IMG/VR virus record: IMGVR_UViG_3300035661_000010
Length of the DNA stretch: 64,000 bases
DNA from: a virus
Reading direction: 5' to 3' (one strand)
Both the position numbers and the translations under genes were made by a program. Shown piece after piece: positions 1 through 45,585 of this stretch; positions within the stretch are counted from its first letter, which is position 1, and the number at the start of each line of letters is the position of its first letter. The notes beneath the pieces were generated by a model. The model made no database searches, was not told the DNA's origin, and worked only from the letters and a program-made list of their open reading frames with translations.

Positions 1-814
1 CGTAAAGCGGTACGTTCGTCAGATCGTGGGCGAGGAGACGAGGAACTGGAACCTGTACTGGATGGCCCTTCGTCCAGGCGAGCACTCGTACCGAGACATG
101 GTCGGAGCGATCGCCAGCTCGAGGAAGAAGTGGGAACACAAGAACGTCTGCCGTCCGTTCAAGGAGCAGCTGAAGGCGTTCTGGGACCTCAACGAGAGCA
201 ACTACGACTTCAAGCCCGGCGAGGAGCTGATCGAAGAAACGCGCGCCGCTCTGAAGCGTGACGACATGCCATTGATCTTCAAGCTCTTCGCGGCCATCGA
301 ATGCAAGGAAGAAGACGAGACGACCTTGGCTTTCGAACATGTCCTGTGTGAAGAGGTTGAGCATCGGTTCGAAGACATGAAGAATCTCAAGTTCTTCATG
401 GAGAAGTACCCGGGGTGGACGGGGCGCGACAATTGGGAGAATCGTCTCACCATGATCGAGATGCTCACCGGCGCATGGGACAAGACCATGAACGAGTTCA
501 TCCACGATCCAGAAGGGGCCTACGAGTACGATGACGGTGCGCTTCTGAAGAAGTTCCCAGACTACGTTTACGACAAGCATCTGATTCAGGGGCAACGTCG
601 CCTGGAGAAGTACTTCGACAAAATTGGTCCGATGAAACCTATGCCAGACAAGCTCGACATGCGCTGGTCAGGTCAATTTATGGGCGTCTCTTGGAGGTAT
701 GCTGCGTACGTCCAGTTCGGCGACAACTACGTCAACGCCAGGTGGGAGGACGTGAAGTGGTCGAAGGAGTTCTGGGAGTACACGCTGTCCATGCAGAAGG
801 CTTGTGAGGGGTAA
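1..814 (+). CDS. hypothetical protein, 5' truncated by the window edge
   Basis: The frame is open from the window start, upstream of the GTG at 26, to TAA at 814. No family recognised. It is the first gene of the modification cluster. Confidence 0.75.
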   Translation, partial: VKRYVRQIVGEETRNWNLYWMALRPGEHSYRDMVGAIASSRKKWEHKNVCRPFKEQLKAFWDLNESNYDFKPGEELIEETRAALKRDDMPLIFKLFAAIECKEEDETTLAFEHVLCEEVEHRFEDMKNLKFFMEKYPGWTGRDNWENRLTMIEMLTGAWDKTMNEFIHDPEGAYEYDDGALLKKFPDYVYDKHLIQGQRRLEKYFDKIGPMKPMPDKLDMRWSGQFMGVSWRYAAYVQFGDNYVNARWEDVKWSKEFWEYTLSMQKACEG

Positions 815-817
815 AGA

Positions 818-1561
818 ATGGAACGCGTTCACGGTCTTGTCATGGTGCAGCAGCCCCAGGTCTACCCGAAGTTGCACCGAATTCATCGGTGGCTTCGAGT
901 AGAGCGATACGTCTGCATGGACGACGCGCAAGTTGATCGTCCTGGTGGTATGGCTCGCTTCAGCTTCGTGCACAACAACGAGCCGCATCGAATCTCGATT
1001 CCGATTACGGGCGGCAAGCGGGTCGCATGCAACCAGGCTAAGGTTTATCTGGACATCGGCCACATGCGAACGATCAAGGAGCACGTTCGAGTCACCCTCG
1101 GCAAGATGAAGTACGGTCAGGAGGTGAGCGAGTTCGTTGCCAAAACGCTAGACATGGCTCCACACTCGCTGTCGTTCGCCGAATGGACGGAAGCATGCAT
1201 GACGTATCTGACGATCTTGCTGTGCGAGCTGCCTGGATTCCAGGGGCCAGCCCGGTTCCTGGAGTCGAGGATTCCGTCCGTAAAGACGTCCGGTCCATCG
1301 AATCGGATCCTGAGCGTCGTGAAGCTTGTTGGGGGTACCGCGTACTACACAGGCAGTCGCGGCTCGCCCAGCCGTGACTACCTTGACGAGGTGACCTTCG
1401 CCGCTGAGGGGATCAAGATCCTGGAGCAGCAGTTTTACACGAACGACTTTCCAGTTGGTCTTGGCGACCGGACGTTTCTGGAGACCTGGGCAAGGTATGG
1501 TCTGACAGGAATGCTGGACATCCTGAATCGCGGAACGCTCGACAACAAGGAAGTCACCTGA
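818..1561 (+). CDS. WbqC-like protein (putative glycine/aminoacyl transfer onto an amino sugar)
   Basis: N-terminal QPQVYP...YVCMDDAQ...ISIPI and C-terminal RILSVVKLVGGTAYYTG...DYLDEVTFAAEGIKI...MLDILNRG follow the WbqC family pattern, in divergent form. Confidence 0.7.
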   Translation: MERVHGLVMVQQPQVYPKLHRIHRWLRVERYVCMDDAQVDRPGGMARFSFVHNNEPHRISIPITGGKRVACNQAKVYLDIGHMRTIKEHVRVTLGKMKYGQEVSEFVAKTLDMAPHSLSFAEWTEACMTYLTILLCELPGFQGPARFLESRIPSVKTSGPSNRILSVVKLVGGTAYYTGSRGSPSRDYLDEVTFAAEGIKILEQQFYTNDFPVGLGDRTFLETWARYGLTGMLDILNRGTLDNKEVT

Positions 1562-3141
1562 TGCAACGACGCGTTCTCCTTGTGCCGCAGCTCGGACTTT
1601 CTCGCGCTCGGAGCGATTCTTCCTATCAGTTCATGATGGATCTGATTCGCTCATCGAGAGAGATGGATCGGAAGTTCTTCTTCTACATGATCCTGCCAGA
1701 GTGGGCCCAGGACCCGTGGCCTGATGAGCCGAACCAGTTCACGATCACGGTGCCGATGAACAAGGACTTCTGGATGAACGAGATGATCGGCGTTCCGGCT
1801 GAGCCTCTCGCAGAAGCCTTTTGTCGTCGTGGCGGCAAGTACATCGTCGACATGCTCTACACGGAGATGGTTCGACCAAGCTGGTACATGGGGCAGGTGA
1901 TCAGTGACTATCGGTCGCGTCACAGTTTGCCAGTGTTCATCACTGATCCGATCACCATCGGCGGCTGGGTAAATCGAACATGGGAGCACCGGGTGGCGAA
2001 CGCATACTCGTACCTGCACGGGTACCCGCTTGCCACGTCGACGTTCGAGGAGAATGGCTACCGAGAGCTGGTCACTGACTTCTTCAGGCCCGCGTACATC
2101 GACAAGTTCAACCAGCGCATCCACCGGGTGCCGGTCGCGATCGACATCGCCTCGTACCAGAAGGTTAGAGACGAGGAACAAGGCAACAAGCACGAGAAGG
2201 TCTCGCTCTTCTGCGGCATGCGATTCAACGAAGACAAAGGCATCAAGTTCATCATGGATGTCTTCCGTACGCTCTACGCCAGCGGCCGTGACATCTACGT
2301 GTGCTCGACGACGGGGACCGATCAGATCAAGGGCACTCAGCAGATCCCGGACAAGGACATGTCGATGCTCAAGACGATGAAGTTCGGATGCCCTCGCGAC
2401 GAGTACGTTCAAGAAGCTGCCAGGTGCCACGTCTTCTTGTCCGCGTCGAAAGTCGAGTCGTTCGCGATGCATATCGTTGAGCAACTCACGCTCGGCCTCA
2501 TCGGAGTCCTGCCAAATGCTCAGTGGGTATGGGACTGGATCCCGAAGGAGTATCCGTTCGTCTACGAGCCTGGCGATCGCGTCGAGGCGTACACGATGAT
2601 CTCATGGGTCATGGATAACTACGAGCGGGCCTACGAGATGGCCCGACCGTTCATGGACTATGTCGCGAAGGCTTACGACTCGAAAGAATCCTCTAAAGCG
2701 ATCTTTGATGCGTTCAACCAGAGGATCGACGAGCGATTCGTTGACTACACGAAGAAGCCCCTGCGCTTCTCGAAAGGTGGCAAGTTCCGGTACCCGTTCC
2801 GCCTTGAGGTCTGTGACGCAGCAGATTCACTGGGCGAGAGCTTCTCGATGCCGCAGCTGCTCCAGGTGCTCAAGGCGCGGATGAAGGGCACAGACGTCGG
2901 CGTCTTCACCAAGCTCGGAGGACCGAGACTGGGCGTGCCTACGCTCTACGACATTCGGATGATGTTGGAGTCGTACGGTTGGACGGATGCGTGCGACGGA
3001 CCCAAGGTCAGGTTCGTGCGCGGGGACAACGTCATCGTTCCGAGCCACGCCTACGCAGATCAGATCGCTGCTGCCAAAGCAGGAAAGATTGCCCACGCCG
3101 CTGAAGCTGCTGCCGACGAAGAGGAGGATCTCGATGTATAA
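1561..3141 (+). CDS. GT-B fold glycosyltransferase (GT4/group 1-like) with C-terminal extension
   Basis: Contains CGMRFNEDKG (GRxxxxKG-like) and HVFLSASKVESFAMHIVEQLTLG (EX7E motif). Confidence 0.85.
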   Translation: MQRRVLLVPQLGLSRARSDSSYQFMMDLIRSSREMDRKFFFYMILPEWAQDPWPDEPNQFTITVPMNKDFWMNEMIGVPAEPLAEAFCRRGGKYIVDMLYTEMVRPSWYMGQVISDYRSRHSLPVFITDPITIGGWVNRTWEHRVANAYSYLHGYPLATSTFEENGYRELVTDFFRPAYIDKFNQRIHRVPVAIDIASYQKVRDEEQGNKHEKVSLFCGMRFNEDKGIKFIMDVFRTLYASGRDIYVCSTTGTDQIKGTQQIPDKDMSMLKTMKFGCPRDEYVQEAARCHVFLSASKVESFAMHIVEQLTLGLIGVLPNAQWVWDWIPKEYPFVYEPGDRVEAYTMISWVMDNYERAYEMARPFMDYVAKAYDSKESSKAIFDAFNQRIDERFVDYTKKPLRFSKGGKFRYPFRLEVCDAADSLGESFSMPQLLQVLKARMKGTDVGVFTKLGGPRLGVPTLYDIRMMLESYGWTDACDGPKVRFVRGDNVIVPSHAYADQIAAAKAGKIAHAAEAAADEEEDLDV

Positions 3142-3403
3142 GCTCGGGGAGAGAAAGCTGACCAGTACGCAGTACGAGACGTTGAAAGCGATTGATCAGT
3201 ACATCAAGACGATGGGGCATGCGCCCACGCATCATGAGCTCGCCGAGGTCATGAGGCTTCCGAATGCGCGGGCCGTAGCGAATCGTATCGACGCGCTCGT
3301 CAACAAGGGTTACCTGGATCAGACGAAGTTTCAGCCACGAGGGATTCGACCCTCGAAGAAGGCAACGTCCGAGTATCCAGAGCTGGGAAGAATTGCATCA
3401 TGA
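3134..3403 (+). CDS. LexA-type winged-HTH DNA-binding protein with no peptidase domain
   Basis: LTSTQYETLKAIDQYIKTMGHAPTHHELAEVMRL...IDALVNKGYL...PRGIR matches the LexA N-terminal domain. ATG at 3134 follows a GGAGG RBS. Confidence 0.8.
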   Translation: MYKLGERKLTSTQYETLKAIDQYIKTMGHAPTHHELAEVMRLPNARAVANRIDALVNKGYLDQTKFQPRGIRPSKKATSEYPELGRIAS

Positions 3404-4503
3404 GACCGAGTCGCAGTGACATCGAGCAGATCTTCGAAGGACGTCGCACCGTTCTGTACGCGCACGACCTCCGAGAGAGCCTGCTCATGGACAACGTGTC
3501 CCCATTGAGCTGCGACTTCACGCTTTCGGATGCTTGCCAGCACAAGTGCCACTTCTGCGTCGACGATCGCAACGAGGTTTCTGGCCCGATCATGTCCGAG
3601 GAGGACGCCTTTCGGATCTTGACGCAGCTTCGCAAGCTTGGCGTGATGAGCGTGAACTTCGAAGGCGGAGGCGAGCCAACCATCGCTCCCGCTTTCGTGG
3701 CGGCCATGCGCCATGCTCACGGCAGCGGGATGCACGTCGGGCTCATCACGAACGGCGGCATGCTTCACAAAGAGGAGATTGCAAACACGCTCCTCGACTG
3801 CGCACGCTACGTGCGCATCAGTCTCGATGCGGTGTCCCCGGAGACTCACGAGACGAGTCACGGCGTGAAGGGGCAGTTCAACAAGATCGTCGAGTCCATC
3901 AAGGAGCTCGTTCGACGTCGAGACGCGAAGACCTCGTCGCGGTCACCGTACGAAAAGCTTCCGGTGATCGGACTTGGCTACCTCATCGACGAGAACACGT
4001 TCCAGGGCATGCACCACGCCTTGGCACTTGGGGAGCATACGGGTGTCGACTACGTGTCGTATCGACCCATGCACAGCGACAAGAAGTATGGTGGGTACTA
4101 CCTTCGAGACGACATGAACTTCGCGCACTCGCAGGCGTTGAAGAGGGTCTCCGAAGTGGAGGGTGGTTCGCGAGTCTACGCAGCGATCGACTGGCCCACC
4201 TCGAAGTATGTGCCCACCAAGAAGTGTTTTGCTCACCGAGGCAAGATCACGGTAGGAGCGACGGGCGACGTCTACACGTGCTGTAACAAGCGGTACAACC
4301 AGGACTACAGCTTCGGTCAGCTCAGGCCTGACGTGCCGCTCGAGCGCCTATGGAGCGGGCCGAAGCGCAAGGACGTCATCAAGCGCCTGGAGAACGCCCT
4401 TCAGGACATGAGCCAACACTGCTCCTCTTGCAACAGCGACGATCTGAATCGAACGTATGTGGAGATGAAGCGTCCGAACCTGCATCACCGCTTCATGGGT
4501 TGA
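3400..4503 (+). CDS. radical SAM enzyme with SPASM/twitch domain
   Basis: Has CQHKCHFC (CxxxCxxC), GGGEP, ITNG and RISLD motifs, plus C-terminal C...GDVYTCC...CSSC. Confidence 0.9.
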   Translation: MRPSRSDIEQIFEGRRTVLYAHDLRESLLMDNVSPLSCDFTLSDACQHKCHFCVDDRNEVSGPIMSEEDAFRILTQLRKLGVMSVNFEGGGEPTIAPAFVAAMRHAHGSGMHVGLITNGGMLHKEEIANTLLDCARYVRISLDAVSPETHETSHGVKGQFNKIVESIKELVRRRDAKTSSRSPYEKLPVIGLGYLIDENTFQGMHHALALGEHTGVDYVSYRPMHSDKKYGGYYLRDDMNFAHSQALKRVSEVEGGSRVYAAIDWPTSKYVPTKKCFAHRGKITVGATGDVYTCCNKRYNQDYSFGQLRPDVPLERLWSGPKRKDVIKRLENALQDMSQHCSSCNSDDLNRTYVEMKRPNLHHRFMG

Positions 4504-4621: not shown

Positions 4622-5095
4622 ATGAACGGAGCGGTCTTCTCGGAGTCCGAGCACTATCGGTACCGATTGTGGCGTGTCTGGTCGAAGACGAAGGGTCGAG
4701 TCCTGTTCGTCATGCTCAATCCGAGCACGGCAGACTTCAAGAAGAACGACCCTACGGTTCGAAAGTGCATCATGTACGCCCAAAAGTGGGGCTATGGATC
4801 GGCCGAGGTCGTGAACATCTTCGCCTGGAGGTCTACGGACCCGAAGGCTCTCTACGACGCCAAGGACCCGGTCGGACCTGAAAACGATCGTCACATCCTC
4901 CAGGCCGCGGGCAACGCGCAGAAGATCATCTGTGCCTGGGGTGCTCACGGCGCCCTCAAAGGCCGAGGTCACAACGTGCTGCGCATGCTTCGTGATGACG
5001 GGTACCAGGTACAGGCTCTCCATCGAACGAAGGATGGACAGCCCGGACATCCCTTGTATCTCGCTGGAAGTGCGGTACCTGTCGACTTTCTATGA
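4622..5095 (+). CDS. DUF1643 family protein
   Basis: Motifs YRYRLWRVW, FVMLNPSTAD, DPTVRKC, VVNIFAWRSTDP, ICAWG and PGHPLY. Confidence 0.85.
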   Translation: MNGAVFSESEHYRYRLWRVWSKTKGRVLFVMLNPSTADFKKNDPTVRKCIMYAQKWGYGSAEVVNIFAWRSTDPKALYDAKDPVGPENDRHILQAAGNAQKIICAWGAHGALKGRGHNVLRMLRDDGYQVQALHRTKDGQPGHPLYLAGSAVPVDFL

Positions 5096-5388: not shown

Positions 5389-5841
5389 ATGGCAAGATGG
5401 AACGTTGGCGAGAAAAACGGCCAATGGAAGGGTGGTCGAACCGTAACCAAGGACGGGTACGTCTTGATCATGGTCGGAAAAGACCATCACCTCGCAGACG
5501 TTCGTGGATACGCGTACGAACATCGCCTCGTTGCGGAGAGAAAGCTTGGAAGAAGACTTCGTCGCGATGAAGAGGTTCATCACGACGATGAAAATAAGTC
5601 GAACAACAGTCCTGGCAACCTAGTCGTGACACGCGGCACCAAGAGACGACTTCGACATTTTGTTCATCATCGCACCAAGCCTTCTGTGCTGAAGAGACCA
5701 GAACAAAGAAATCGCACTGTGCTCTGCGCTTGCGGTTGCAAGACGGAGATGAAGAGGTTCGACAAGTACGGTCGACCAAGACGATTCATGCCAAGTCACA
5801 ACATGAGAGTGAGGGCACGATGGGCCAAAAAACGTCCATAG
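5389..5841 (+). CDS. HNH homing endonuclease
   Basis: WKGGR...GYAYEHRLVAERKLGRRL...EVHHDDENKSNNSPGNL; C-terminal CACGC. Confidence 0.85.
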   Translation: MARWNVGEKNGQWKGGRTVTKDGYVLIMVGKDHHLADVRGYAYEHRLVAERKLGRRLRRDEEVHHDDENKSNNSPGNLVVTRGTKRRLRHFVHHRTKPSVLKRPEQRNRTVLCACGCKTEMKRFDKYGRPRRFMPSHNMRVRARWAKKRP

Positions 5842-6632
5842 AGTGGTGCGACCATACGTTCAACCCGTGGGCTGGATGTGCGAAGATCAGTCCAGCTTGT
5901 AAGTCATGTTATGCGGAAAACATCTCGCATAGGTTCGGCTGGAATGTATGGGGCACCGAGTCCCCTCGAAGGTTCTTCGGCGATAAGCACTGGAACGAAC
6001 CGGTGAAGTGGGACCGCGCCGTCAAGGATCCCAACAAAAGACCCAAGGTCTTCTGCGCGTCGATGGCTGATGTATTCGAGCTGCGGAGCGATCTTGATGT
6101 CCACCGCGATCGCCTGTGGAAGCTGATCGAAGCTACGCCTGGCCTCGTTTGGCTGCTGCTCACGAAGCGTCCAGAGAACGTGAAGAAGATCTATGGAGAG
6201 ACGCTACGAGCCAACATGTGGCTCGGTACGACGGTCGAGAACCAGAAGTACACGTCACGCATCGAGAGCCTGTTGAGAATCAACGCTCCGGTGAGGTTTC
6301 TGTCATGTGAGCCGATGCTGGGCCCGATCGACTTCAACACGTGCGGCATTTGGCATCCGGGAATGCATGACATGTACCTGGAGGGCGTTCACTGGGTCAT
6401 AGCAGGAGGAGAGTCTGGGCCAGGAGCTCGTCAGCCAAGCCTCGACTGGTATCGAACGATCCGCGATCAGTGTGGGTACGCCAAAGTGCCGTTCTTCTTC
6501 AAGCAGCACGGTAACTGGGCGCCTGGAGCGAACGGGCTTGTGCGGCTCCGGAGTAAGAAAGACGGAGGCCGCCTACTGGATGGCGTCGAACACAACGGCG
6601 TCCCCCTCGACCAGAACGGGAATCCGCGATGA
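5820..6632 (+). CDS. DUF5131 (phage Gp37/Gp68) family protein
   Basis: TSIEWCDHTFNPWAGCAKISPACKSCYAE, VFCASMADVF, LLTKRPEN, FLSCEPMLG, WVIAGGESG and VPFFFKQ. Start reassigned to ATG 5820. Confidence 0.9.
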   Translation: MGQKTSIEWCDHTFNPWAGCAKISPACKSCYAENISHRFGWNVWGTESPRRFFGDKHWNEPVKWDRAVKDPNKRPKVFCASMADVFELRSDLDVHRDRLWKLIEATPGLVWLLLTKRPENVKKIYGETLRANMWLGTTVENQKYTSRIESLLRINAPVRFLSCEPMLGPIDFNTCGIWHPGMHDMYLEGVHWVIAGGESGPGARQPSLDWYRTIRDQCGYAKVPFFFKQHGNWAPGANGLVRLRSKKDGGRLLDGVEHNGVPLDQNGNPR

Positions 6633-7072
6633 ACCGCAACGGCATGGAGGAGTGGGAGGTCAACGTTCAGCAACGTCCGGCCCGCGAGAACCACCACCTT
6701 GTCTGTCCTGAGTGCGGCGCGAAGCTCGTTCTTCGTTCTCGTAGGGACGGGAAGTGGTTCTACGGATGCGAGATGTGGATGGACACGAAGTGCGACGGCG
6801 GGATCGGGGCGCATCCAGACGGCACACCGCTCGGGATCCCGGCGAACAAGGAGACGAAGAAGGCGAGGGTCGAGGCCCATCGATCCTTCGATCGCCTTTG
6901 CACCGAAGGGAAGATGTCGAAAGGCAAAGCCTACAAGTGGATGAAGAAGACGTTGCAGCTCGCGAACGGCATGAGCCACATCGCGATGATGACGAAGAGT
7001 CAGTGCGAGGCACTGGTGGCGGCAGTAGACACGAAGCTCGGGAAGAAGGAACAGCATGTCGACGACAGATGA
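6629..7072 (+). CDS. zinc-finger protein (DUF3268/ssl1498-like)
   Basis: CPECG...FYGC...CDGGIGAHPDGTPLGIPA...RVEAHRSFDRL...HIAMM. Confidence 0.7.
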   Translation: MNRNGMEEWEVNVQQRPARENHHLVCPECGAKLVLRSRRDGKWFYGCEMWMDTKCDGGIGAHPDGTPLGIPANKETKKARVEAHRSFDRLCTEGKMSKGKAYKWMKKTLQLANGMSHIAMMTKSQCEALVAAVDTKLGKKEQHVDDR

Positions 7073-8696
7073 AAAGGTGTACACGCTCCTCTGCCCATTC
7101 GGAGGGATTGGCGCAGGAGCCTTGGGATTCCTTCGTGCTCGGTTGAAGATGCTCGGAGTCGAGGCTCGGTGGAAGGTCATCGGCAACATCGACAACGACA
7201 AGCTTGCCTGTGAAGACTTCGAGTACCTGACGAAGTCGAAGGCCGTCTGCGCCGACATCCAGGCGATGACGGCCAAGGAGCTGATCGCTCACTTCGGTCC
7301 GGAGCCACCGGACGCTGTCTTCAGCAGCCCGCCGTGCAAGGGCTTCAGTGGTCTGCTCTCGGAGAAGCGGTCGAAGACGGACAAGTACCAGAAGATGAAC
7401 CGGCTCATCCTCGACTGGATGGAGCTGATGTTCAAGGCATGGCCAGAAGGCCCTCGGCTCGTACTCATCGAGAACGTGCCCAGGATCCAGTCACGCGGCG
7501 CTCCGCTTCTCCGCCAGATCAAGGAGATACTGAACGCGCACGGTTACGTCTGCCACGGCAGCACTCATGATTGTGGTGAGCTCGGTGGTCTCGGCCAGCA
7601 TCGTCAACGCTTCCTGCTCGTTGCTCGAAAGTATAAAAAGGTCCCTGCGATTCTGTTTCAACCGATCAAGAAGCGGGTGAAGGCGTGCGGCGAAGTCCTG
7701 GAGAAGCTGCCCATGCCGAATGATCCGGCTGGCGGCCCCATGCACGTTCTTCCAAAGGTCTCGTGGTTGAACTGGGTCCGGTTGTCCCTCATCCCAGCTG
7801 GTGGAGACTGGAGGGATCTCCCGGGCGTGCTCGAGGAAGGACAGGAGCGCCGATCCAAGTTCAAGCGTAAGGCCGTTGAGAGCTGGTACGCACCAACGGG
7901 GACGATTGGCGGACCGGGCTCGAATGGTGTCGAGAATGTCGCGGATCCGCGCGTCACGTCCATCTCGAACAGCCAGAACACTCACCAGAACAAGTACGCC
8001 ATCATCGAGTGGGACAAGGCAAGCAAGACTGTCATCGGAGCGGCGAGGCCAGGCTCAGGAGCCCTGAACGTGGCTGACCCTCGCATCCCCAAGGACATCA
8101 AGCTCAACATCGTGATGCCACCTGCGGTCTGCTACGACCATGGCTATGGGGTCCTGGACTTCTGGAATCAGCCATCCTCCACCATCGCCGCGGGGTCAGC
8201 TGTAGGTCAGGGCGCGTATTCGGTAGCTGATCCTCGCCTGATCCCGAAGGCAGAGCCGTACAAAGGAACGTACGGAGTGCTCGACTGGAAGGAGGTGGCG
8301 AAGACCGTCACCGGCAACGCTCGTCTCGATACGGGCACGTTCGCCGTGGCGGATCCGCGAGACAACCGTCCGCACTGGATTATCAACAAGCTCACGGACA
8401 AGCCACCGTTCGTCCCAGTCATCGTAGCCGAGGACGGAACGTGGCACCGACCGCTAACCACCCTGGAGCTTGCCGCCCTTCAGTCGATCCCGACAGAAGT
8501 GGACGGGAAGCCCTTGAAGCTCGCCGGGAACAGCATCTCTGGCTGGCGCGAGCGAATCGGGAACGCCGTTCCGGTGGACACGGCTGAAGCCATTGGCGTA
8601 AGGATGCTCACGGTCCTTCTGGAGAGCGATACGAACGCATTCATGCTGTCTTCTGGTGGAGCGGTATGGGTGGAGCCAGCACGGCTCGACTCGTAA
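7056..8696 (+). CDS. C5 DNA cytosine methyltransferase
   Basis: Motif I PFGGIG, motif IV SPPCKGFS, motif VI IENVP, motif VIII QHRQR, motif IX RPLTTLELAALQS and motif X IGNAVP. Confidence 0.92.
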   Translation: MSTTDEKVYTLLCPFGGIGAGALGFLRARLKMLGVEARWKVIGNIDNDKLACEDFEYLTKSKAVCADIQAMTAKELIAHFGPEPPDAVFSSPPCKGFSGLLSEKRSKTDKYQKMNRLILDWMELMFKAWPEGPRLVLIENVPRIQSRGAPLLRQIKEILNAHGYVCHGSTHDCGELGGLGQHRQRFLLVARKYKKVPAILFQPIKKRVKACGEVLEKLPMPNDPAGGPMHVLPKVSWLNWVRLSLIPAGGDWRDLPGVLEEGQERRSKFKRKAVESWYAPTGTIGGPGSNGVENVADPRVTSISNSQNTHQNKYAIIEWDKASKTVIGAARPGSGALNVADPRIPKDIKLNIVMPPAVCYDHGYGVLDFWNQPSSTIAAGSAVGQGAYSVADPRLIPKAEPYKGTYGVLDWKEVAKTVTGNARLDTGTFAVADPRDNRPHWIINKLTDKPPFVPVIVAEDGTWHRPLTTLELAALQSIPTEVDGKPLKLAGNSISGWRERIGNAVPVDTAEAIGVRMLTVLLESDTNAFMLSSGGAVWVEPARLDS

Positions 8697-8765
8697 CCTA
8701 CGTTCGTTGCATGCAAGCGTCACCGCGTTGTAGAGTTTCCTTCGTACCTACCGAAGGAACGATCG

Positions 8766-9563
8766 ATGTACAGCTCGAATGGCGTTGCACTATCAAAGTC
8801 GTGCACCGCACCCATGGTCGACAGCAGTGACCTGCTCGGGGATCAAGAGGCGCTTCGCAAGCGCTACGCAGAGGACGGCTACCTGAAGTTCTCGGGTCTG
8901 CTCCCAAAGAAGCGGGTACTCGGTATCCGGAAGCTGTACTTCGACCTGTTCAACTTCAAGTCGGATGGGTGTCCTTCACATGGAACGCCAGGCCATCCAG
9001 CTTTTTCGTTTGTTCGGTCGGAGGTCTTCGATTCGTTCGCCAAGCCAGAGGAGATGTTTCAGATCTCTGAGGCGCTCTTGCAGATAGATTCAGTGGTTCC
9101 GCTCAAGCGGAGACCGCTCCGTCACTTCAAGAAAGGACACGCTGCCTCGCGGGCGCATGCGGATCTGAGCTACGTCGATCAGGGCACCAAGGACGTCGTC
9201 ACGTTCTGGGTGCCGATCGGGGACTGTCTCGCAGATACGGGGTCTCTCACGTACCTCGAAGGATCGCACAAGATCGGCATCGACAAGCTGCGTCAGACGA
9301 TGAGCGATCGCACCGACAGTCCGAATGACAAGCGGCGCCTCAGCCACGATCTGCAAGCACTTGCGGAACGAACGGGAAGGAAATGGCTGGTCAGCGACTT
9401 CGAGGCTGGAGACGTGGTCTGCCACTCTCCGTACATCATCCATGCTTCGCTCGACTGTCGCACCGATGAACCGCGGCTATCCACGGACCTTCGCTTCGTG
9501 CGGCTCGGAGACGAGATCGACCCGCGCTGGTTGAAAGACTGGCGAGCAGACGACGGTTACTAG
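8766..9563 (+). CDS. phytanoyl-CoA dioxygenase (PhyH)-family 2OG-Fe(II) dioxygenase
   Basis: YAEDGYL, HxD (HADLSY), TFWVPIGD...GSLTYLEGSH, AGDVVCH...IIHAS and RLSTDLRF. Confidence 0.88.
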   Translation: MYSSNGVALSKSCTAPMVDSSDLLGDQEALRKRYAEDGYLKFSGLLPKKRVLGIRKLYFDLFNFKSDGCPSHGTPGHPAFSFVRSEVFDSFAKPEEMFQISEALLQIDSVVPLKRRPLRHFKKGHAASRAHADLSYVDQGTKDVVTFWVPIGDCLADTGSLTYLEGSHKIGIDKLRQTMSDRTDSPNDKRRLSHDLQALAERTGRKWLVSDFEAGDVVCHSPYIIHASLDCRTDEPRLSTDLRFVRLGDEIDPRWLKDWRADDGY

Positions 9564-9638: not shown

Positions 9639-10424
9639 ATGAGAGTTCTGGTAGTCGCTCCGCATGCGGATGACGAAGTGCTCGGAGCTGGTGGGTACAT
9701 GGCGAAGCTCGCCAACGCTGGTCACGAGGTCTTCGTCTTGATCATGTGCGATCGTTCAGAGGGGCATTCGTACGATCCGCAGTTGATCGGATTCCTTCGC
9801 GATTGCGCCCTGAAAGCAAACGCGATTCTTGGAACGAAAGCGGTGTTCTTCGCTCACCTTCGCGAGGAACGACTTGACACGTCACTTTCGGACGTCATCG
9901 TTCCGATTGAGAAGCACATTGCCATGATCCGTCCATCACTTGTGATGCTGCCGCATCGAGGCGACGTGAACCAAGATCATCGAGCGGTCTTCGAGGCTGG
10001 GCTTGTGGCCACGCGCACGCTCGGTAACTGGGAAGACAAGTACACCGAGAACGAGCTCCGCGGCGCCGCTTCTCCGTACAAGCAGAAGGAGAAGACGGCT
10101 CGACGTTACAACGTGCAGAAGGTCCTCTGTTACGAGGTCCCCTCAACGACAGAGCAAGCTCCGCCAGGGTGGGGGTTCAATCCGAATGTCTTCGTCGACA
10201 TCACCGACACTCTGGAACAAAAGGTAAGAGCTCTCGCTTGCTACACCAGCGAGACGGATGCCTTTCCGTTTCCTCGATCTCTCGAAGGTATGCGAGTGGT
10301 CGCTAGGTTCAGAGGTATGGCTGCCTCCTTCGAAGCCGCCGAGGCGTTCGAGTTGAAAAGGGAGATCGTGTTCACTACCAACGGAAGCAGTACGACGAAG
10401 AGTAAGGTGAAGAGGAAGCGATGA
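9639..10424 (+). CDS. PIG-L/LmbE family N-acetyl-sugar deacetylase
   Basis: VVAPHADDEVLGAGG, HRGDVNQDH, YEVPS, FVDITDTLEQKVRALACYTSE and AEAF. Confidence 0.92.
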   Translation: MRVLVVAPHADDEVLGAGGYMAKLANAGHEVFVLIMCDRSEGHSYDPQLIGFLRDCALKANAILGTKAVFFAHLREERLDTSLSDVIVPIEKHIAMIRPSLVMLPHRGDVNQDHRAVFEAGLVATRTLGNWEDKYTENELRGAASPYKQKEKTARRYNVQKVLCYEVPSTTEQAPPGWGFNPNVFVDITDTLEQKVRALACYTSETDAFPFPRSLEGMRVVARFRGMAASFEAAEAFELKREIVFTTNGSSTTKSKVKRKR

Positions 10425-10951
10425 GTGAAAAGATCGGAGAGTTCAGGATCTCGAACCTCGTTCCTGAGGACTACGCATCGATCATCTCTGTCGAGATATC
10501 GGCCTTCAGTGGAGACAAGGTGATGGGCGTCGAAAACATCGCGGACCTGTACGTGTACGACGGACTCAGGTTCTCGCTCAAAGCCACTGTGGACGACAGT
10601 GACATGGTTGGCTACATGCTCGTGCACGTGATGGCGGAGAACGAGAGTCGTCGCATGCTCTACCTGGCTGACTTCGCCGTCAGACCAGAGTTTCAACGCA
10701 TGAACGTCGGATGGCAGATGATGCGGTCGTTCATGTGCGCGATGAAAGAAGAGAGGGTTGTTACGCTCTTCGACATGGAGCTTGTCGAAGGCTCACACAA
10801 GATGATGGAGAAGCGTCGCGACGACATATCGAAGCTCGGGTGGGAGAAGCTGAGCGAGCACAAGCTCTCCGACTATCACGGCGATCAAGACCATGCCTGG
10901 TACCACCTGTACGCGCTCTGCCCGAAAGACACCGATGCTGGTTCAAGATGA
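10421..10951 (+). CDS. GNAT family N-acetyltransferase
   Basis: MVGYML...LYLADFAVRPEFQRMNVGWQMM (acetyl-CoA-binding motif A). Confidence 0.8.
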   Translation: MSEKIGEFRISNLVPEDYASIISVEISAFSGDKVMGVENIADLYVYDGLRFSLKATVDDSDMVGYMLVHVMAENESRRMLYLADFAVRPEFQRMNVGWQMMRSFMCAMKEERVVTLFDMELVEGSHKMMEKRRDDISKLGWEKLSEHKLSDYHGDQDHAWYHLYALCPKDTDAGSR

Positions 10952-11810
10952 ACACTTGGTGGACTCGCTCTTCCTCGATCTGAAAGAGAAGAACGCGCAG
11001 CACGTAGCGGACACCCTCTGGTATCGAAAGGCCATCACTGGTCGCGCCAAGCCGTTTGTGTTCATTGGTCGACAGAGTCATGTGTTCGCGTGGCAGCTCG
11101 AAAGCGGAGCCTCTGAAGTGTGGGGCGGCGAGACGTTCGTGGAGCAAGATGCGCTTCCGATGAACGAGGTCGACGCTTGTCAGTTCGTCGAGGAAATGCC
11201 GAAACCTTTTTGGTCGTTCACGTCTGGCGCCCATGAGATCTTGAAGCCAAAGCTCCAGGACGAGTACTCGTCGATGCGGATCGATCTTTGTCCATATCGA
11301 TCGATGGAAGAGTACGAGGCCACGGTCTGGTCGAGCAAGCGTCGCCGAAACCTGACTCAAGAACTTCGCCAGTACGACAGGTTCAGTAGATCGCTGTCGA
11401 CACTATTTGATGCGCGGGATCTGTCATGGTTGCTGGACCTGAATGCGACTGTGTCCATCAAGATGGGCGAGGTTCCGTACTACGAGAGTGGCAACAGGCT
11501 CGGAGGCTTGTGCAAGCTTCTCGGAACTGCGTCTGCGCTGGGATTCTATCGGTGCCTCAAGATCTACGATGGCGAGCGCCTCGCGGCGGCGGAAGTGTTT
11601 GTCGAGCATGCGCCGACCAGATCGATCCTGTCATTCATGGGGCACGCGCTTCCTGAATACTCAGGACTCGGAAAAGTCCTGTACAAAGAAGTGATCGCCA
11701 GAGCCATCAGCGTTGGAATCGAAACGGTCGACGTTGGAAATTACAAGAGCGACATCAAACTTCTGTTCAAGTATCGACCGCTGCCAACGTACGACGTGGA
11801 GATTGTGTGA
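10935..11810 (+). CDS. GNAT-fold protein (FemABX/BcsL-like acyl or aminoacyl transferase)
   Basis: IDL...SMEEYEATVWSSKRRRNL, YDGERLAAA and YSGLGKVLYKEVIARAISVGIETVDVG...K, the typical GNAT_6/Fem-like C-terminus. Confidence 0.7.
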   Translation: MLVQDEHLVDSLFLDLKEKNAQHVADTLWYRKAITGRAKPFVFIGRQSHVFAWQLESGASEVWGGETFVEQDALPMNEVDACQFVEEMPKPFWSFTSGAHEILKPKLQDEYSSMRIDLCPYRSMEEYEATVWSSKRRRNLTQELRQYDRFSRSLSTLFDARDLSWLLDLNATVSIKMGEVPYYESGNRLGGLCKLLGTASALGFYRCLKIYDGERLAAAEVFVEHAPTRSILSFMGHALPEYSGLGKVLYKEVIARAISVGIETVDVGNYKSDIKLLFKYRPLPTYDVEIV

Positions 11811-13189
11811 TGAAAAAGGTCTTTGTTACAGGAACATGGGGCCGACCGAACGGACTCGAAGCCAACATCTATCGTTCAACCAACGGAGACGCACTCGTTC
11901 GTCGATACCCGGACTTCGATGAGTACGACGTTTGGAAGAATGCACATACCACCGCGGATCACGATCCGTTTGGTGACGGCGAGAAGAGAGACTGGGCCAA
12001 GTACTACGGTCACATTGACTCGATGATCAAGAGCGGCAAATGGGACGCGATCATCTGCTGTTTCCTCGACGATGCCATCACTGGAGGGATGTCCAAGTAC
12101 GCGGAGAAGATTCCAACGCTGTGCGTGAACAGAGAAGCGGCCAGGCTCGAGGACGACCGATGGTTTGCTCGATCGGTTACGTCGAAGTACGGCGTGGCCG
12201 CTTCTGCAATGGAGCTCGTCCGGACAAAGCAGGAGGCGCTTGCCTTCCTGAGTAACGACTGCCCGTGGGAGGGATGCGTTGTGAAACTGCTCGACTCCAC
12301 GACACATGAGGTCGTTGCGGAGATCTACGATACGAAGAAGGAAGCCATCTCGGCCATCGAGTCGCGGCCAGACGCTTGGTTTCCGAGCGTCATCGAAGAG
12401 AAGCTGTCTGGTCACGAAGTCGCGTTCTCGGTGCTCGTCAGCCACGAAACAGACCAGATCATCCCGATGGTCACCGATTTCGAGTACACGCGGTTGGCCA
12501 CCGGAGACCTGGGTCGAGAGACGAGCGAGATGGGCTCGCACGACATCGCTGGAGTCTCTGACAGGGTGCTCCAGGAAATCTTTTGGCCAATGATGCCTTG
12601 GTTCAAGGAGGTCGGCTACACGGGCTGGCTCGATGCGAGCTGCATGTACAATCCGAAGACAGACACGCTAACGGTTTTCGAGTTCATGACCAGACTTGGA
12701 AGTAGCCAGTTCGAGCTGGCGATGACACTGCTCGGCACGGACTTCTCGGAAATCGTCCAGAGGATGCACCGAAAGGCCCTTCGTCCAGACGATGTCCGGT
12801 GGCGGTACAAGCACGGTGTAGGCGTTGTGGTCTGCGACAGCTACGCGATGACCGGAGAAAGTGACCGCCGACACATTGTTTCCGGTCCGGTGAAGGAACT
12901 GATCTACGGTCGCGTCTTCGCCGACTACGGCTTCCAGACGCTGTCGAGAATGAACTGTGTCTTCGACAAGCAGGAACGCATGGTGACGAGAGGCGATCGC
13001 GTCTACAACGCCATTGGAGCTGGTGACACGTTTCCCATCGCGAAGAAGCATGCCTACAGCGTTGCTCGGTTCTGCAAGTTCACGGGCGCGTACTACAGGA
13101 CAGACATCGGCTATCGCTGGGAAGACGATGAGGCGAAGGGCGCGCTGGGTGAGAGCGGGGTCCTTCCGAGAGGCTGGTACCGAGAATGA
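11807..13189 (+). CDS. divergent PurD-like (GAR synthetase fold) ATP-grasp amide ligase
   Basis: AARLEDDR, IEEKLSGHE, EYTRLATGDLGRETSEMG (compare PurD DHKR...GDxGPNTGGMG), EFMTRLG (compare EFNxRFG) and C-terminal TRGDRV...AY...YYRTDIG. Confidence 0.8.
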   Translation: MMKKVFVTGTWGRPNGLEANIYRSTNGDALVRRYPDFDEYDVWKNAHTTADHDPFGDGEKRDWAKYYGHIDSMIKSGKWDAIICCFLDDAITGGMSKYAEKIPTLCVNREAARLEDDRWFARSVTSKYGVAASAMELVRTKQEALAFLSNDCPWEGCVVKLLDSTTHEVVAEIYDTKKEAISAIESRPDAWFPSVIEEKLSGHEVAFSVLVSHETDQIIPMVTDFEYTRLATGDLGRETSEMGSHDIAGVSDRVLQEIFWPMMPWFKEVGYTGWLDASCMYNPKTDTLTVFEFMTRLGSSQFELAMTLLGTDFSEIVQRMHRKALRPDDVRWRYKHGVGVVVCDSYAMTGESDRRHIVSGPVKELIYGRVFADYGFQTLSRMNCVFDKQERMVTRGDRVYNAIGAGDTFPIAKKHAYSVARFCKFTGAYYRTDIGYRWEDDEAKGALGESGVLPRGWYRE

Positions 13190-13764
13190 AGGTCAAGATT
13201 TCGTTATGGAATCCGCTCGAAGACGTGATCGAAACGTTCATGTTTTTGCTTGGATTGTCGGGCTCCATCGTCTTCATGCGTCACAGGTGGCTGGCGCTTG
13301 CTGCCGCGCTGATTGGTGCCCTTGGAGCCGCGAGACTCCTGACCCAGGCCATCGGGCGTTCGCGTCTGCGCAACAGCATGCGTTACGTCACAGTCCACGG
13401 GCTCATGATCGTTGGGAACCGGGTACCCTCTCCAGAGTACGTGGAGCAGGTGATTTCGGAGACGTTCGAGTGGCTCACCGAAAACGCACGGTTCGAGGAG
13501 AAAGACTTCGAGAGACTGCTTCATGGGTGTGTTCTCGAAGTCATCGACGCACCGTTGCCGGAGTGGTGCGACCTCACATGCCCGTGGGCATTGCTTCCAT
13601 GGGACTCAGGCAAGTGGATGCGTTGCGGAATGAACGATGGGCGCAAGCTACCGGCTCTGCCGCATGTTTTGTTACATCGCGCGATGTACGTGAAGTATGG
13701 GATGATCGAGTCAGTTGATGTGCATGAAGCGGCCGATGACGTCGGCTTCGATAGGACGGGCTGA
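13186..13764 (+). CDS. hypothetical membrane protein
   Basis: Two N-terminal hydrophobic segments; ATGA-coupled. Confidence 0.55.
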   Translation: MKVKISLWNPLEDVIETFMFLLGLSGSIVFMRHRWLALAAALIGALGAARLLTQAIGRSRLRNSMRYVTVHGLMIVGNRVPSPEYVEQVISETFEWLTENARFEEKDFERLLHGCVLEVIDAPLPEWCDLTCPWALLPWDSGKWMRCGMNDGRKLPALPHVLLHRAMYVKYGMIESVDVHEAADDVGFDRTG

Positions 13765-13766
13765 AC

Positions 13767-14795
13767 ATGGCGAATGAAAAGAAAAAGACGCAGCCCGTAT
13801 CTACGGACCCGCCGGCGCCTGCTACCGAAACGTTGCCGTCAGCTCCCATGCCGCCCACTCCAGCGTTCGACATGGCGATGCCCCCAATTCCGTCACTGGC
13901 CGGGGCAAGTCTTCCGGCCTTTGCGATGACTCGCATAGAGACGGTCAAGACTGAGGTTCACAACGCTGAGCCTGTGACCGAGAGCAAGTCGCTCAAGGTG
14001 TGGGACGTTCCGGTCGACCTCATCGATCCAAACGTAGACAACCCGAACGAGATGGACGAGGAGACCTTCAACGTTCTCGCAGAAGAGATCGACGAGCAGC
14101 ACGAAGGTTCACCTGGCTTCATCGAACCGATTCACCTGGTCCGCTTGAACAACGGTCGATTCCAGCTCGTTGGCGGAGAGCACCGATGGCGAGCAGTGAA
14201 GGCTCTCGGTAGGAAGACGATTCCAGCCTTGATCTTCGAGGGAGGCAATTGGGACAAGGAGGAGTTCCGGGAGTTCATGCTCTTCCGCTTGAACCACCTC
14301 CGCGGCAGTTTGAACACCGACAAGTTCCTGAAGCTGTACCAGAAGCATGCCGAGAAATATGGCAACGAGCAGCTTCAAAGGCTCTACGCCTTCACCGACA
14401 AGGACTACTGGGCAAGCCTCACGGGAGGCACGAAGCAGGCGCTCAAGGACATGGGCATGTCGCAGGAGATGCTCAACGACTTCGACGAGAAGAGCAAAGA
14501 GGTAAAGACGGTCGACGACCTCGCCTCCATCCTGAATGGCTTGTTCTCGAAATACGGGAACGACCTTCGGTACAACTTCATGGTCTTCGTTTTCGGCGGC
14601 AAAGAGCATCTCATGATCCGAATGGACAAGGAGATGACTGCCCAGATGGAGAAAGTGAAGAGGTTCTGTCGAGACAATCAGATCGACGTGAACCTGCTCT
14701 TCAAGCCAGTGGTGAGTCGCATCAAGGACTTCGCAGAAGATCCAGAGACGCTGGCCAGGCTGAAGTCGACCGGTGAAGTCGACGGCTTCAAGTGA
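13767..14795 (+). CDS. ParB/Srx N-terminal domain protein
   Basis: VPVDLIDPNVDNPNEM...GFIEPI...FQLVGGEHRWRAVKALG...IPA; N-terminus is Pro-rich. Confidence 0.88.
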   Translation: MANEKKKTQPVSTDPPAPATETLPSAPMPPTPAFDMAMPPIPSLAGASLPAFAMTRIETVKTEVHNAEPVTESKSLKVWDVPVDLIDPNVDNPNEMDEETFNVLAEEIDEQHEGSPGFIEPIHLVRLNNGRFQLVGGEHRWRAVKALGRKTIPALIFEGGNWDKEEFREFMLFRLNHLRGSLNTDKFLKLYQKHAEKYGNEQLQRLYAFTDKDYWASLTGGTKQALKDMGMSQEMLNDFDEKSKEVKTVDDLASILNGLFSKYGNDLRYNFMVFVFGGKEHLMIRMDKEMTAQMEKVKRFCRDNQIDVNLLFKPVVSRIKDFAEDPETLARLKSTGEVDGFK

Positions 14796-21879: not shown

Positions 21880-22782
21880 ATGCCGTATTCAGCCAAGATC
21901 ATTGCTGACTCCATTGGTCCCACTGGAGCTCGCCTGACGACGTGGGAATTAAGTTATCCAAGGTTTTGTCATAGTGAACTCATGACTCACCGTATGTTCT
22001 CGCGCAATGCTGCCAGTTCGCGTGCCATCCCGCTCGAGAAGATGCTCAGTCGAGTCTCGGAAGATCCGGCTATGCCCAAGTTCTGGGGAGAGAACCAGTC
22101 CGGCATGCAAGCCGCTCAAGAGTTGTCGACAGAGGACATCGAAGAGGCAAAGAGGATCTGGCTCGAAGCGCGCGACCTCATGGTCAAGTACGCCAGGAAG
22201 CTCGGATCGCCGAAGGACAAAGGTGGGCTGAATGTTCACAAGCAGATCGCCAACAGGCTCACTGAGCCGTGGATGCACATCACTGTGCTCGTGTCGGCCA
22301 CGAACTTCATGAACTGGTATGGGCTACGCGATCACGCGATGGCCCAGCCCGAGCTTGCCTGGGTGGCTCACGAGATGCTCCAGGTCATCAAGGCAGCAAA
22401 GCCGGTGAAGATGCCATTTGGTAGCTGGCACCTACCGCTCGTTCCAGACGAGAACAAGCTTCTGCGTGAAGGCTTCTCGGAAGACGACATCAAAATGATC
22501 TGTGCAGGGCGTTGTGCACGCGTCTCGTACCTGACGCATGATGGTCAGCGAGATCCGAAGGCCGACATCGAGCTCGCCACGAAACTGCTCTCGAATGGCC
22601 ACATGAGTCCGTTCGAGCACGCGGGGAGAGCACTCGAAGAGCTGACATGGTCCGGCAACTTCAGGGGCTTCGAGCAGCTCAGGAAGACGCTTCCTGGTGA
22701 GTCTCTGTTCGCGCACAACTCGAACATGGCGGAGCTGATGGAGATCGAGGGTTTGTCTGTGACTGATCGGCTGGCCGTATGA
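21880..22782 (+). CDS. thyX: FAD-dependent thymidylate synthase
   Basis: HSELMTHRMFSRNAASSRAIP (ThyX motif), HKQIANRLTEPW, AQPE, RCARVSY and HMSPFEH. Confidence 0.92.
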   Translation: MPYSAKIIADSIGPTGARLTTWELSYPRFCHSELMTHRMFSRNAASSRAIPLEKMLSRVSEDPAMPKFWGENQSGMQAAQELSTEDIEEAKRIWLEARDLMVKYARKLGSPKDKGGLNVHKQIANRLTEPWMHITVLVSATNFMNWYGLRDHAMAQPELAWVAHEMLQVIKAAKPVKMPFGSWHLPLVPDENKLLREGFSEDDIKMICAGRCARVSYLTHDGQRDPKADIELATKLLSNGHMSPFEHAGRALEELTWSGNFRGFEQLRKTLPGESLFAHNSNMAELMEIEGLSVTDRLAV

Positions 22783-45495: not shown

Positions 45496-45569
45496 CCGTG
45501 CTTAGCTCAGTTGGAAGAGCAGCCGAACTTCAAGTCGGTCTGTCACGGGTTCGAGTCCCGTAGCGCGGT
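45496..45569 (+). tRNA. atypical tRNA with an 8-nt anticodon loop (ACUUCAAG, containing U-UCA)
   Basis: Acceptor CCGTGCT/AGCGCGG, D-arm GCTC-AGTTGGAA-GAGC, anticodon stem GCCGA/TCGGT, T-arm ACGGG-TTCGAGT-CCCGT; no encoded CCA. Confidence 0.85.
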
Positions 45570-45585
45570 CGAAGGAGAAAGCATC

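Follow-up and report, generated by a model that had tools for sequence, protein, structure and literature searches.

To our knowledge, the family of glycinamide ribonucleotide (GAR) synthetase, or PurD, is regarded as having a single function. In structures of PurD (PDB 1gso, 2yw2, 3mjf, and 5vev), a four-domain N-B-A-C ATP-grasp fold is combined with ATP-binding Lys and Glu residues, a Mg-binding Glu, a catalytic Arg, and a C-terminal YRTDIG motif. All these elements are shared by the product (P0001) of a gene in the IMG/VR virus record IMGVR_UViG_3300035661_000010, of which the whole stretch of 64,000 nucleotides was analyzed (hereafter, the window). However, P0001 is ~21–27% identical to PurD, carries an insertion within its N domain plus a tail at the C terminus, and belongs to a phage-only group without purine context.

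11807..13189, + strand (likely start at ATG 11810): PurD-like ATP-grasp ligase of the "M clade" (P0001), recognized by Pfam GARS_A and GARS_C, a structural model, a residue table, and a tree

The gene is a phage-specific, neofunctionalized member of the PurD family in which the four-domain ATP-grasp scaffold is kept. Its product is most likely an accessory tailoring ligase in a ParB-linked phage module. In the fuller explanation, to which a probability of about 0.5 is given, it is an ATP-grasp amide ligase that couples an acid of amino-acid type to the amine of an amino-sugar intermediate, within a bacillithiol-like tailoring pathway and with the phage DNA as the probable carrier.

A precedent for a purine-enzyme fold turned to non-canonical DNA is PurZ of phage S-2L and its relatives, a PurA homologue that makes 2-aminoadenine. 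PurZ still has a nucleotide substrate and PurA-like chemistry, whereas in the PurD-like enzyme even the class of substrate has apparently changed. A conserved fold with a rewritten substrate pocket would make this enzyme the first functional offshoot of the GAR synthetase family and the second purine-pathway fold recruited by phages, after PurZ.

Two described systems resemble the genes around the PurD-like ligase. The first is the synthesis of bacillithiol and mycothiol (BshA/B/C and MshA/B/C/D), whose order of enzyme types the phage module seems to follow: a GT4 glycosyltransferase (GT4-type by weak matches in the phage), a LmbE/PIG-L deacetylase, an ATP-dependent ligase that joins an amino acid to the freed amine of glucosamine (a candidate in the phage), and, in the case of mycothiol, a GNAT. 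The PIG-L of the phage is nearest to BshB1 and the model of its WbqC-like protein is nearest to BshC. On the other hand, neither thiol pathway includes an ATP-grasp enzyme, and a ParB and a SWIM/RarA-C-like protein are additions of the phage.

The second system is that of the phage DNA hypermodification cassettes, which consist of a C5 methyltransferase or a 5mYOX/TET-JBP oxygenase, a ParB, and a glycosyltransferase (Burke 2021; bioRxiv 2023.12.21.572611; O'Toole 2026, PMC13229309). Both these cassettes and the module include a ParB-like protein, a glycosyltransferase, and a variable set of tailoring enzymes, and a PIG-L homologue follows Tet_JBP and TAGT genes in Arthrobacter phages. In contrast, TET/JBP and TAGT were not detected in the window, and an ATP-grasp ligase, PurD-like or other, is part of no described cassette. 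On DNA, aminoacylated sugars have not been reported. The novelty of the present locus lies in the PurD-like ligase within the module and in the fold link between WbqC and BshC.

A PurD Fold outside the Canonical Clade

The open reading frame (ORF) at 11807–13189 (+) translates into 460 amino acids. Gene callers chose the start at ATG 11810 on eight independent contigs, which gives a product of 459 amino acids (P0002). Since the identical protein is found on contigs of at least four samples and the family is strongly conserved, this is a real protein-coding gene and not a chance ORF.

Pfam detects GARS_A (2.3e-12) and GARS_C (1.2e-8) in P0001, and GARS_N is not detected by it. The AlphaFold model (pLDDT 94.8) has the complete four-domain N-B-A-C fold of PurD. 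In a Foldseek search of the PDB, the top 15 matches of the model are all GAR synthetases (TM-scores of 0.71–0.84), with biotin carboxylases far behind. Similarly, its neighbors in the ESM-Atlas are all PurD, with TM-scores of 0.82–0.89 across residues 3–441, the N domain included.

In sequence, the distance from PurD is large. The score of P0001 against the purD equivalog model TIGR00877 is 113.3 bits, for a cut-off of 288, and the closest sequences outside its own clade are canonical PurDs with ~25–28% identity. In a careful, unrooted IQ-TREE phylogeny, canonical PurD is split with 100/100 support from two divergent sets, the M clade, which contains P0001 and is itself monophyletic with 100/100 support, and the T clade (P0126–P0133 and others), which connects the M clade to canonical PurD. 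A quick tree of 56 rows agrees with this split. P0001 therefore lies outside the canonical clade.

No PHROG family was found for the ligase. A fold search of viral structures (BFVD) returned only generic ATP-grasp proteins (TM-scores of up to 0.45) and no PurD-like viral protein. In the literature on PurD, ATP-grasp, PIG-L, or WbqC proteins in phage DNA modification, no description of a PurD-like enzyme of this kind or of the module was found.

A Remodeled Active Site

Each position was compared with 80 canonical PurDs. The M clade keeps E115, K160, E197/E198, E204, E292, R296, R13, R431, and D433, that is, residues with roles in ATP and Mg binding and in the stabilization of the acyl-phosphate (PMC8880213, PMC2978367). 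In detail, the ATP-binding Lys (K160), the hinge Glu-Glu (E197/E198), the ribose-binding Glu (E204), and the catalytic Arg (R296) of ATP-grasp enzymes are found in every M-clade member that covers those columns.

On the other hand, 10 positions that are invariant in canonical PurD (n = 80) are replaced in P0001. The replacements include D226E, K228T, N238E, G241E, G278S, N294M, D299S, P300S, and E301Q, each against 80/80 canonical sequences; G11W is a further change. The residue Y/F276 has become Asp, as it has in the T clade. The canonical signatures GGREH, D-H-K, NTGGMG, and EFNxRFGDPE are not found in P0001, and the ATP-gripping B loop (DGLAAGKG) is degenerate. GTWGRPN stands at residues 9–15, ETSEMG at 238–243, and EFMTRLGSSQ at 292–301, and all three motifs are kept in the five closest relatives.

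Several of the replaced residues have roles assigned in PurD. Asp226 and Glu301 (here Glu and Gln) are the pair that holds the amino group of glycine, and Asp299 (here Ser) is the proposed general base for the amine of phosphoribosylamine (PMC2978367). Lys228 (here Thr) and Asn238 (here Glu) contact the phosphates. As one of the two acidic glycine-binding residues (Glu to Gln301) and the proposed general base (Asp to Ser299) are replaced, glycine is doubtful as the acid substrate. In the E-x-N Mg pair, E292 is kept, but its partner Asn is replaced by Met (6/6 proteins of the M clade) or by Thr (11/11 of the T clade). The Asp gained at 276 may compensate for this lost Mg ligand.

The new residues T223, E226, T228, E241, H245, W274, M294, T295, R333, and H336 are invariant within the M clade, at an overall identity of just 33–51%. 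Their fixation argues for selection on a functional, remodeled active site, and not for decay. The catalytic activity of the enzyme and its two substrates are inferred.

The protein could also be a catalytically dead or altered scaffold, whose PurD fold recognizes a substrate or holds the product of the Fem-like gene that lies directly upstream, without the formation of any ATP-dependent bond. The M clade has lost several elements that normally grip the ATP phosphates or Mg (Lys228, Asn238, the E-x-N Asn, and the glycine-rich B loop), so that ATP-dependent acyl-phosphate chemistry is not guaranteed. The overlap with the Fem-like gene is constant in the M-clade loci with upstream sequence, and tandem paralogues occur in two loci (L002 and L014), one L014 copy being clearly degenerate. 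However, K160, E197/E198, E204, E292, and R296 are invariant, the residues of the M-clade cleft are strictly conserved in spite of the low overall identity, and the acidic residue gained at 276 could take the place of the lost Mg ligand. A scaffold is consequently judged quite unlikely.

Even less can be said for an ordinary auxiliary purine gene, that is, a true GAR synthetase carried by a phage. The fold and the canonical PurDs among the best matches are what such a gene would show, but the score below the purD cut-off, the 10 replaced invariant residues, the fully supported position outside the canonical clade, the conserved sugar-tailoring neighbors, and the absence of pur genes nearby make it highly improbable. 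In the Pfam scan of ~50 ORFs of the window, including every + strand ORF of at least 340 amino acids, no pur gene was found. Judged by the TIGR00877 score, the replaced invariant positions, the degenerate B loop, and the tree, the product is not a GAR synthetase.

An earlier note, made from the letters of the window and a list of its ORFs, had claimed that the GAR-synthetase architecture is retained with three altered motifs (GxGGREH to GTWGRPN, NTGGMG to ETSEMG, and EFNxRFGDPE to EFMTRLGSSQ), that the window has no other pur genes, and that the ligase is apparently repurposed away from purine synthesis. The model, which superposes on PurD over residues 3–441, the contrast of the motifs with residues invariant in 80/80 canonical PurDs, and the Pfam scan agree with the first two claims. 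The comparison of predicted structure and phylogeny with true PurD, which the note had proposed, gave a kept fold in a position outside the canonical clade; together with the failed purD cut-off, the replaced substrate residues, and the phage nature of all contexts, it upholds the repurposing.

Distribution of the M and T Clades

The M clade is extremely rare, with ~6 sequences in two very large protein collections. The identities of its members to P0001 are 50% for P0003, 45% for P0122, and 34% for both P0123 and P0124; P0125 also belongs to it. All the recovered PurD-like loci of the M and T clades are phage-like.

The T clade appears as a sister lineage. It shares with the M clade the changes D226E, G241E, and Y276D and the loss of the Asn of E-x-N, and in three loci (L011, L012, and L017) also the same module of PIG-L, SWIM/RarA-C-like, WbqC, glycosyltransferase, and ParB genes. 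In contrast to the M clade, Lys228 is kept, the general-base Asp is often kept, the B loop is kept in some members, and the motifs read EFTxRFGDPT and T[AG]EMG. The T-clade gene adjoins the SWIM/RarA-C-like and WbqC genes and not a Fem-like one, and some members are located in head-morphogenesis modules. For instance, in two IMG/VR phages (L018:10001–11290 and L019:9875–11191), T-clade-like homologues are placed between the gene of the major capsid protein and that of a portal protein carrying a Mu-F domain. This placement indicates at least one further, head-module-associated role of the phage PurD-like clan.

Multiple copies were found in two loci. L002 has two tandem M-clade paralogues (1186–2583 and 3196–4398) separated by a gene of 200 amino acids, and L014 has three T-type copies (1–411, 408–1697, and 1843–3120), one of them with degenerate motifs, followed by a ParB gene. 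In a phage contig of 227 kb (L001:10001–11551), the M-clade homologue P0004 aligns only as far as ETSEMG and continues in out-of-register, low-complexity sequence; it is probably a frameshifted or decaying copy. JmjC-like and MT-A70-like genes lie near P0004, and none of the genes there matched the profiles of the sugar module.

Among cultured phages, a tblastn search of 50,697 phage records with P0001 and P0128 yielded no M-clade and no clear T-clade gene. The matches had ~23–29% identity; those with an annotation are ordinary purD genes, and the majority are on unannotated fragment records or on bacterial contigs. Scans with the M-clade alignment gave no match in IMG/VR or in the JGI metagenomes, and the T-clade alignment found four loci in IMG/VR.

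The Gene Neighborhood

The genes that accompany the PurD-like gene in the window are the following:

2..814, + strand: C-terminal part of a SWIM/RarA(MgsA)-C-like protein of 386 amino acids, whose gene begins upstream of the window (hidden Markov model, HMM, 1.3e-99)
818..1561, + strand: WbqC-like protein, the second of two in the phage (also L015:8016–8756; Pfam WbqC 1.9e-10)
1561..3141, + strand: GT-B glycosyltransferase, probably of GT4 type (Glycos_transf_1 6e-4, below the cut-off; NCBIfam GT4 EpsE 1e-6)
9639..10424, + strand: PIG-L/LmbE-type de-N-acetylase with a basic C-terminal tail (Pfam PIG-L 6.8e-20)
10421..10951, + strand: small GNAT acetyltransferase (Pfam Acetyltransf_1 8.6e-6)
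10893..11810 (start at 10935 according to gene callers), + strand: FemAB-like protein of GNAT fold, Acetyltransf_6 (Pfam PF13480 8e-6)
13186..13764, + strand: protein of 192 amino acids with two N-terminal hydrophobic helices
13767..14795, + strand: protein with a ParB N-terminal domain (Pfam ParB_N 7.7e-11; phrog_26387 1.3e-49)

From PIG-L to ParB (9639–14795), the PIG-L, GNAT, Fem-like, PurD-like, 192-amino-acid, and ParB genes form a single run with overlaps or gaps of 2 nt. The PIG-L and GNAT genes overlap by ATGA, the stop of the Fem-like gene and the start of the PurD-like gene overlap in TGATG (11808–11812), and the stop of the latter and the start of the 192-amino-acid gene in ATGA (13186–13189). 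The ParB gene begins 2 nt after that gene.

The PIG-L protein shows the metal-binding motifs APHADDE and NQDH of LmbE/PIG-L deacetylases, and among the NCBIfam models it is BshB1 that it matches best (1.8e-13, under the equivalog cut-off). The tail of the protein is rich in Lys and Arg (TKSKVKRKR, window 10380–10424) and is the sole clearly basic segment among the module enzymes. PIG-L genes accompany the PurD-like gene in the window and in L009, L011, L012, L017, and L002. A GNAT is also present in the T-clade module of L012. The Fem-like gene abuts the ligase gene, directly upstream, in all three M-clade loci with upstream sequence (the window, L009, and L002); for its product no PHROG family was found, and no significant match among PDB sequences came from a profile search.

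Downstream of the ligase, the 192-amino-acid protein has no Pfam or PHROG match and is homologous only to its counterpart in L009 (25% identity). L001 and L002 encode unrelated proteins at this place, and in L007/L008 the ParB gene follows the ligase gene directly. ParB is found one gene downstream of the ligase in the window, and within a few genes of it in seven lineages (the window, L009, L011, L012, L017, L007/8, and L014).

When HMMs built from the recovered sequences were run over all loci, the PurD-like gene was found with PIG-L, WbqC-like, ParB, and GT-B glycosyltransferase (~500 amino acids) genes in 5/5 of the long module-type loci (the window, L009, L011, L012, and L017), and with the SWIM/RarA-C-like protein in four of these five. 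The ligases of these loci share 24–34% identity and the phages are very divergent. Homologues of the glycosyltransferase were found in L009, L011, L012, and L017, and also in the cultured phages DLP3 and V-YDF132; they give weak matches to GT4-conflict. The SWIM/RarA-C-like gene is complete in L015, its relatives give weak MgsA_C matches, and its family in the Atlas is 92% viral. The PurD-like gene marks an elaborate variant of a widespread, uncharacterized phage module composed of ParB, GT4-type, PIG-L, and a BshC-like WbqC.

The Ligase in a Proposed Bacillithiol-Like Pathway

BshC is the putative cysteine ligase of bacillithiol synthesis, and we know of no in vitro work in which its activity was established. 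The model of the WbqC-like protein (pLDDT 81.8) has a HUP/Rossmann fold, and its best match among 48,161 PDB representatives is BshC (4wbd; Z 13.3 over 225 residues, rmsd 3.8). Class I LysRS (Z 11.2) and then other class I synthetases come next. By its modeled fold, the WbqC-like protein is a candidate ligase of the BshC/MshC type. This suggests that WbqC proteins, a Pfam family known from O-antigen clusters, are amino-acid-activating ligases, and offers a testable function for the family in those clusters. Fusions of WbqC and GNAT domains occur in phages (Atlas).

In the proposed pathway, the GT4-type glycosyltransferase would attach an N-acetylhexosamine and the PIG-L enzyme would remove its acetyl group. 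One or more amide-linked residues would then be built by the WbqC/BshC-like, PurD-like, and Fem-like ligases, and the GNAT would cap the product. The PurD-like enzyme would use either the unmasked amine of the sugar or the amine of a residue already placed on it. The carrier of the decorated sugar would most likely be the phage's own DNA, with ParB as the DNA-side partner. This order of steps and the DNA target are likewise inferred.

The earlier note had gone further and proposed a new amino-acid:amino-sugar ligase, on the grounds that the gene shares a translationally coupled run with an amino-sugar deacetylase. The coupled run itself is confirmed by the overlapping starts and stops and 2-nt gaps described above. 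In its specific form, the PurD-like enzyme would be the equivalent of MshC/BshC, acylating the 2-amino group exposed by PIG-L, probably with glycine. PIG-L occurs with the ligase in every long module-type locus, the natural acceptor of PurD is a sugar-borne amine, and the acid-lined pocket, which would suit the ammonium group of an amino acid, is retained and even enlarged (E226, E238, and E241). However, every module has a WbqC-like protein, which folds like BshC and aminoacyl-tRNA synthetases in the model and resembles BshC more closely than the PurD-like enzyme does. Furthermore, Vibrio phage V-YDF132 has PIG-L, two WbqC, glycosyltransferase, and ParB genes without a PurD-like one, and the glycine-binding Glu and general-base Asp are replaced in the M clade. 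This assignment is therefore held only tentatively. From the earlier proposal, a PurD-fold ligase outside purine synthesis with PIG-L in every long module-type locus stands, and the acylation of the PIG-L-unmasked amine by this particular enzyme is not established.

On the modeled fold, the amino-acid-to-amino-sugar step could be assigned to the WbqC-like protein with no less reason than to the PurD-like enzyme. As that step already has a candidate, the PurD-like enzyme may add a further residue or acylate another amine.

Phage DNA as the Probable Carrier

The module has relatives in two cultured phages. In Stenotrophomonas phage DLP3 (L021, 64670–71229), PIG-L, sugar enzyme, glycosyltransferase, and ParB genes precede the terminase gene. 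In V-YDF132 (L022, 56790–62785), the order is PIG-L, WbqC, SWIM/RarA-C-like, methyltransferase, a second WbqC, glycosyltransferase, ParB, and then the large terminase. Neither of the two modules has a PurD-like gene, so that the ligase is regarded as accessory, and the core pathway does not reveal which step it performs. The DNA of DLP3 resisted all 15 restriction enzymes tested (PMC7326821). DLP3 and V-YDF132 are ready experimental systems for the product of the module.

Homologues of the window PIG-L are present in other cultured phages too, and in Arthrobacter phage Prairie the gene order is ParB, Tet_JBP, TAGT, and PIG-L homologue. ParB-like proteins activate phage thymine dioxygenases on double-stranded DNA (PMC13229309), and ParB and glycosyltransferases are the commonest neighbors of these dioxygenases (PMC13229309; bioRxiv 2023.12.21.572611). 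A C5 DNA methylase, a Thy1-like protein, a T4-type deoxynucleoside monophosphate kinase, and a 5'-deoxynucleotidase encoded in the window point in the same direction. Although indirect, these observations agree with one another, and the product of the module probably ends up on the phage DNA.

Several observations weigh against this explanation, in addition to the weakened ATP and Mg grip of the ligase. The PurD-like gene is missing from the modules of both cultured phages, and no sugar-tailoring or ParB genes lie near the T-clade-like homologues of L018 and L019, so that more than one pathway may be served by the wider clan. Neither a TET/JBP oxygenase nor a recognized DNA-glycosyltransferase family was detected in the window. 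Possible candidates for base hydroxylation there, without a Tet_JBP match, are a C5 methylase with a PhyH-type dioxygenase after it, and a Thy1-like protein. The ligase is acidic (pI 5.5, net charge −12), which does not suggest direct DNA binding and would permit a soluble precursor. Basic, DNA-binding character was sought in the module enzymes and found solely in the PIG-L tail; direct DNA binding is unsupported. The set of enzymes would suit a soluble bacillithiol-like product equally, and the membrane-type 192-amino-acid protein coupled to the ligase would fit an envelope-associated one as well as a DNA-borne one.

The last points would agree with a ligase acting as described whose product is not borne on DNA, being either a soluble aminoacyl-glucosaminide that resembles bacillithiol or a glycoconjugate carried by the virion or by the envelope of the host. 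The GT4-type, PIG-L, and BshC-like enzymes mirror the three steps of bacillithiol synthesis, and DegT, WbqC, and GT4 proteins are typical of surface-glycan synthesis; the acidity of the ligase and its coupled two-helix neighbor point the same way. Nevertheless, the module is consistently linked to ParB and the SWIM/RarA-C-like protein and abuts the terminase in cultured phages, PIG-L homologues follow Tet_JBP and TAGT in actinophages, the DNA of DLP3 is resistant to restriction, and no flippase, polymerase, or lipid-carrier genes were seen. A carrier other than DNA is on balance unlikely, and the ligase with DNA as the probable carrier is preferred.

A bolder version of the DNA-borne product is a "glycopeptide" hypermodification, in which a de-N-acetylated hexosamine carried by a DNA pyrimidine would receive an aminoacyl or short peptidyl chain, built by the PurD-like, WbqC/BshC-like, and Fem-like enzymes. 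We consider it speculative and rather doubtful. If true, it would be a chemical class of DNA modification never described, made with the first PurD-family enzyme outside purine synthesis. Any placement of the product on DNA would extend hypermodification chemistry to aminoacylated amino sugars, which would matter for how phages escape restriction and CRISPR defences, for artefacts in sequencing, and for enzymatic tools to label DNA.

Other Features of the Phage

The source of the window is a metagenomic tailed phage of T4-like type, with nearly all genes on the + strand. A prohead protease is encoded in it, and the sequence recurs in several samples, on contigs that reach 159 kb. The region of this phage upstream of the window (L015) adds an SSB, a DegT aminotransferase, a second ParB, another WbqC, and the SWIM/RarA-C-like gene. 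The window further encodes a C5 DNA methylase, enzymes of nucleotide metabolism, and a portal protein:

21880–22782: Thy1 (ThyX)-like protein of unusual length (300 amino acids, two matched stretches)
25927–26664 and 26674–27339: T4-type deoxynucleoside monophosphate kinase and YfbR-like 5'-deoxynucleotidase
59562–61448: T4-type portal protein

The Thy1-like, kinase, and 5'-deoxynucleotidase genes are clustered, and the set fits the pre-replicative supply of a non-canonical pyrimidine nucleotide. The C5 cytosine methylase (546 amino acids) is followed after 70 nt by the gene of a 2-oxoglutarate dioxygenase of the PhyH family, which is not of the TET/JBP type (window 7056–9563). L009 has a PhyH gene and a radical SAM gene, and the gene calls for the displayed region include none assigned to a methylase family; the PhyH-type dioxygenase may for this reason act on the sugar or the amino acid and not on 5-methylcytosine.

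A tRNA-like gene was found by ARAGORN at 45496–45570, with an anticodon loop that could not be assigned (tRNA-???, "tc" at position 35). Finally, DUF1643 and DUF5131 (phage Gp37/Gp68) genes are located within the cluster (window 4622–5095 and 5730–6632), and DUF1643 is also found in phage DLP3, as gp128 (PMC7326821).

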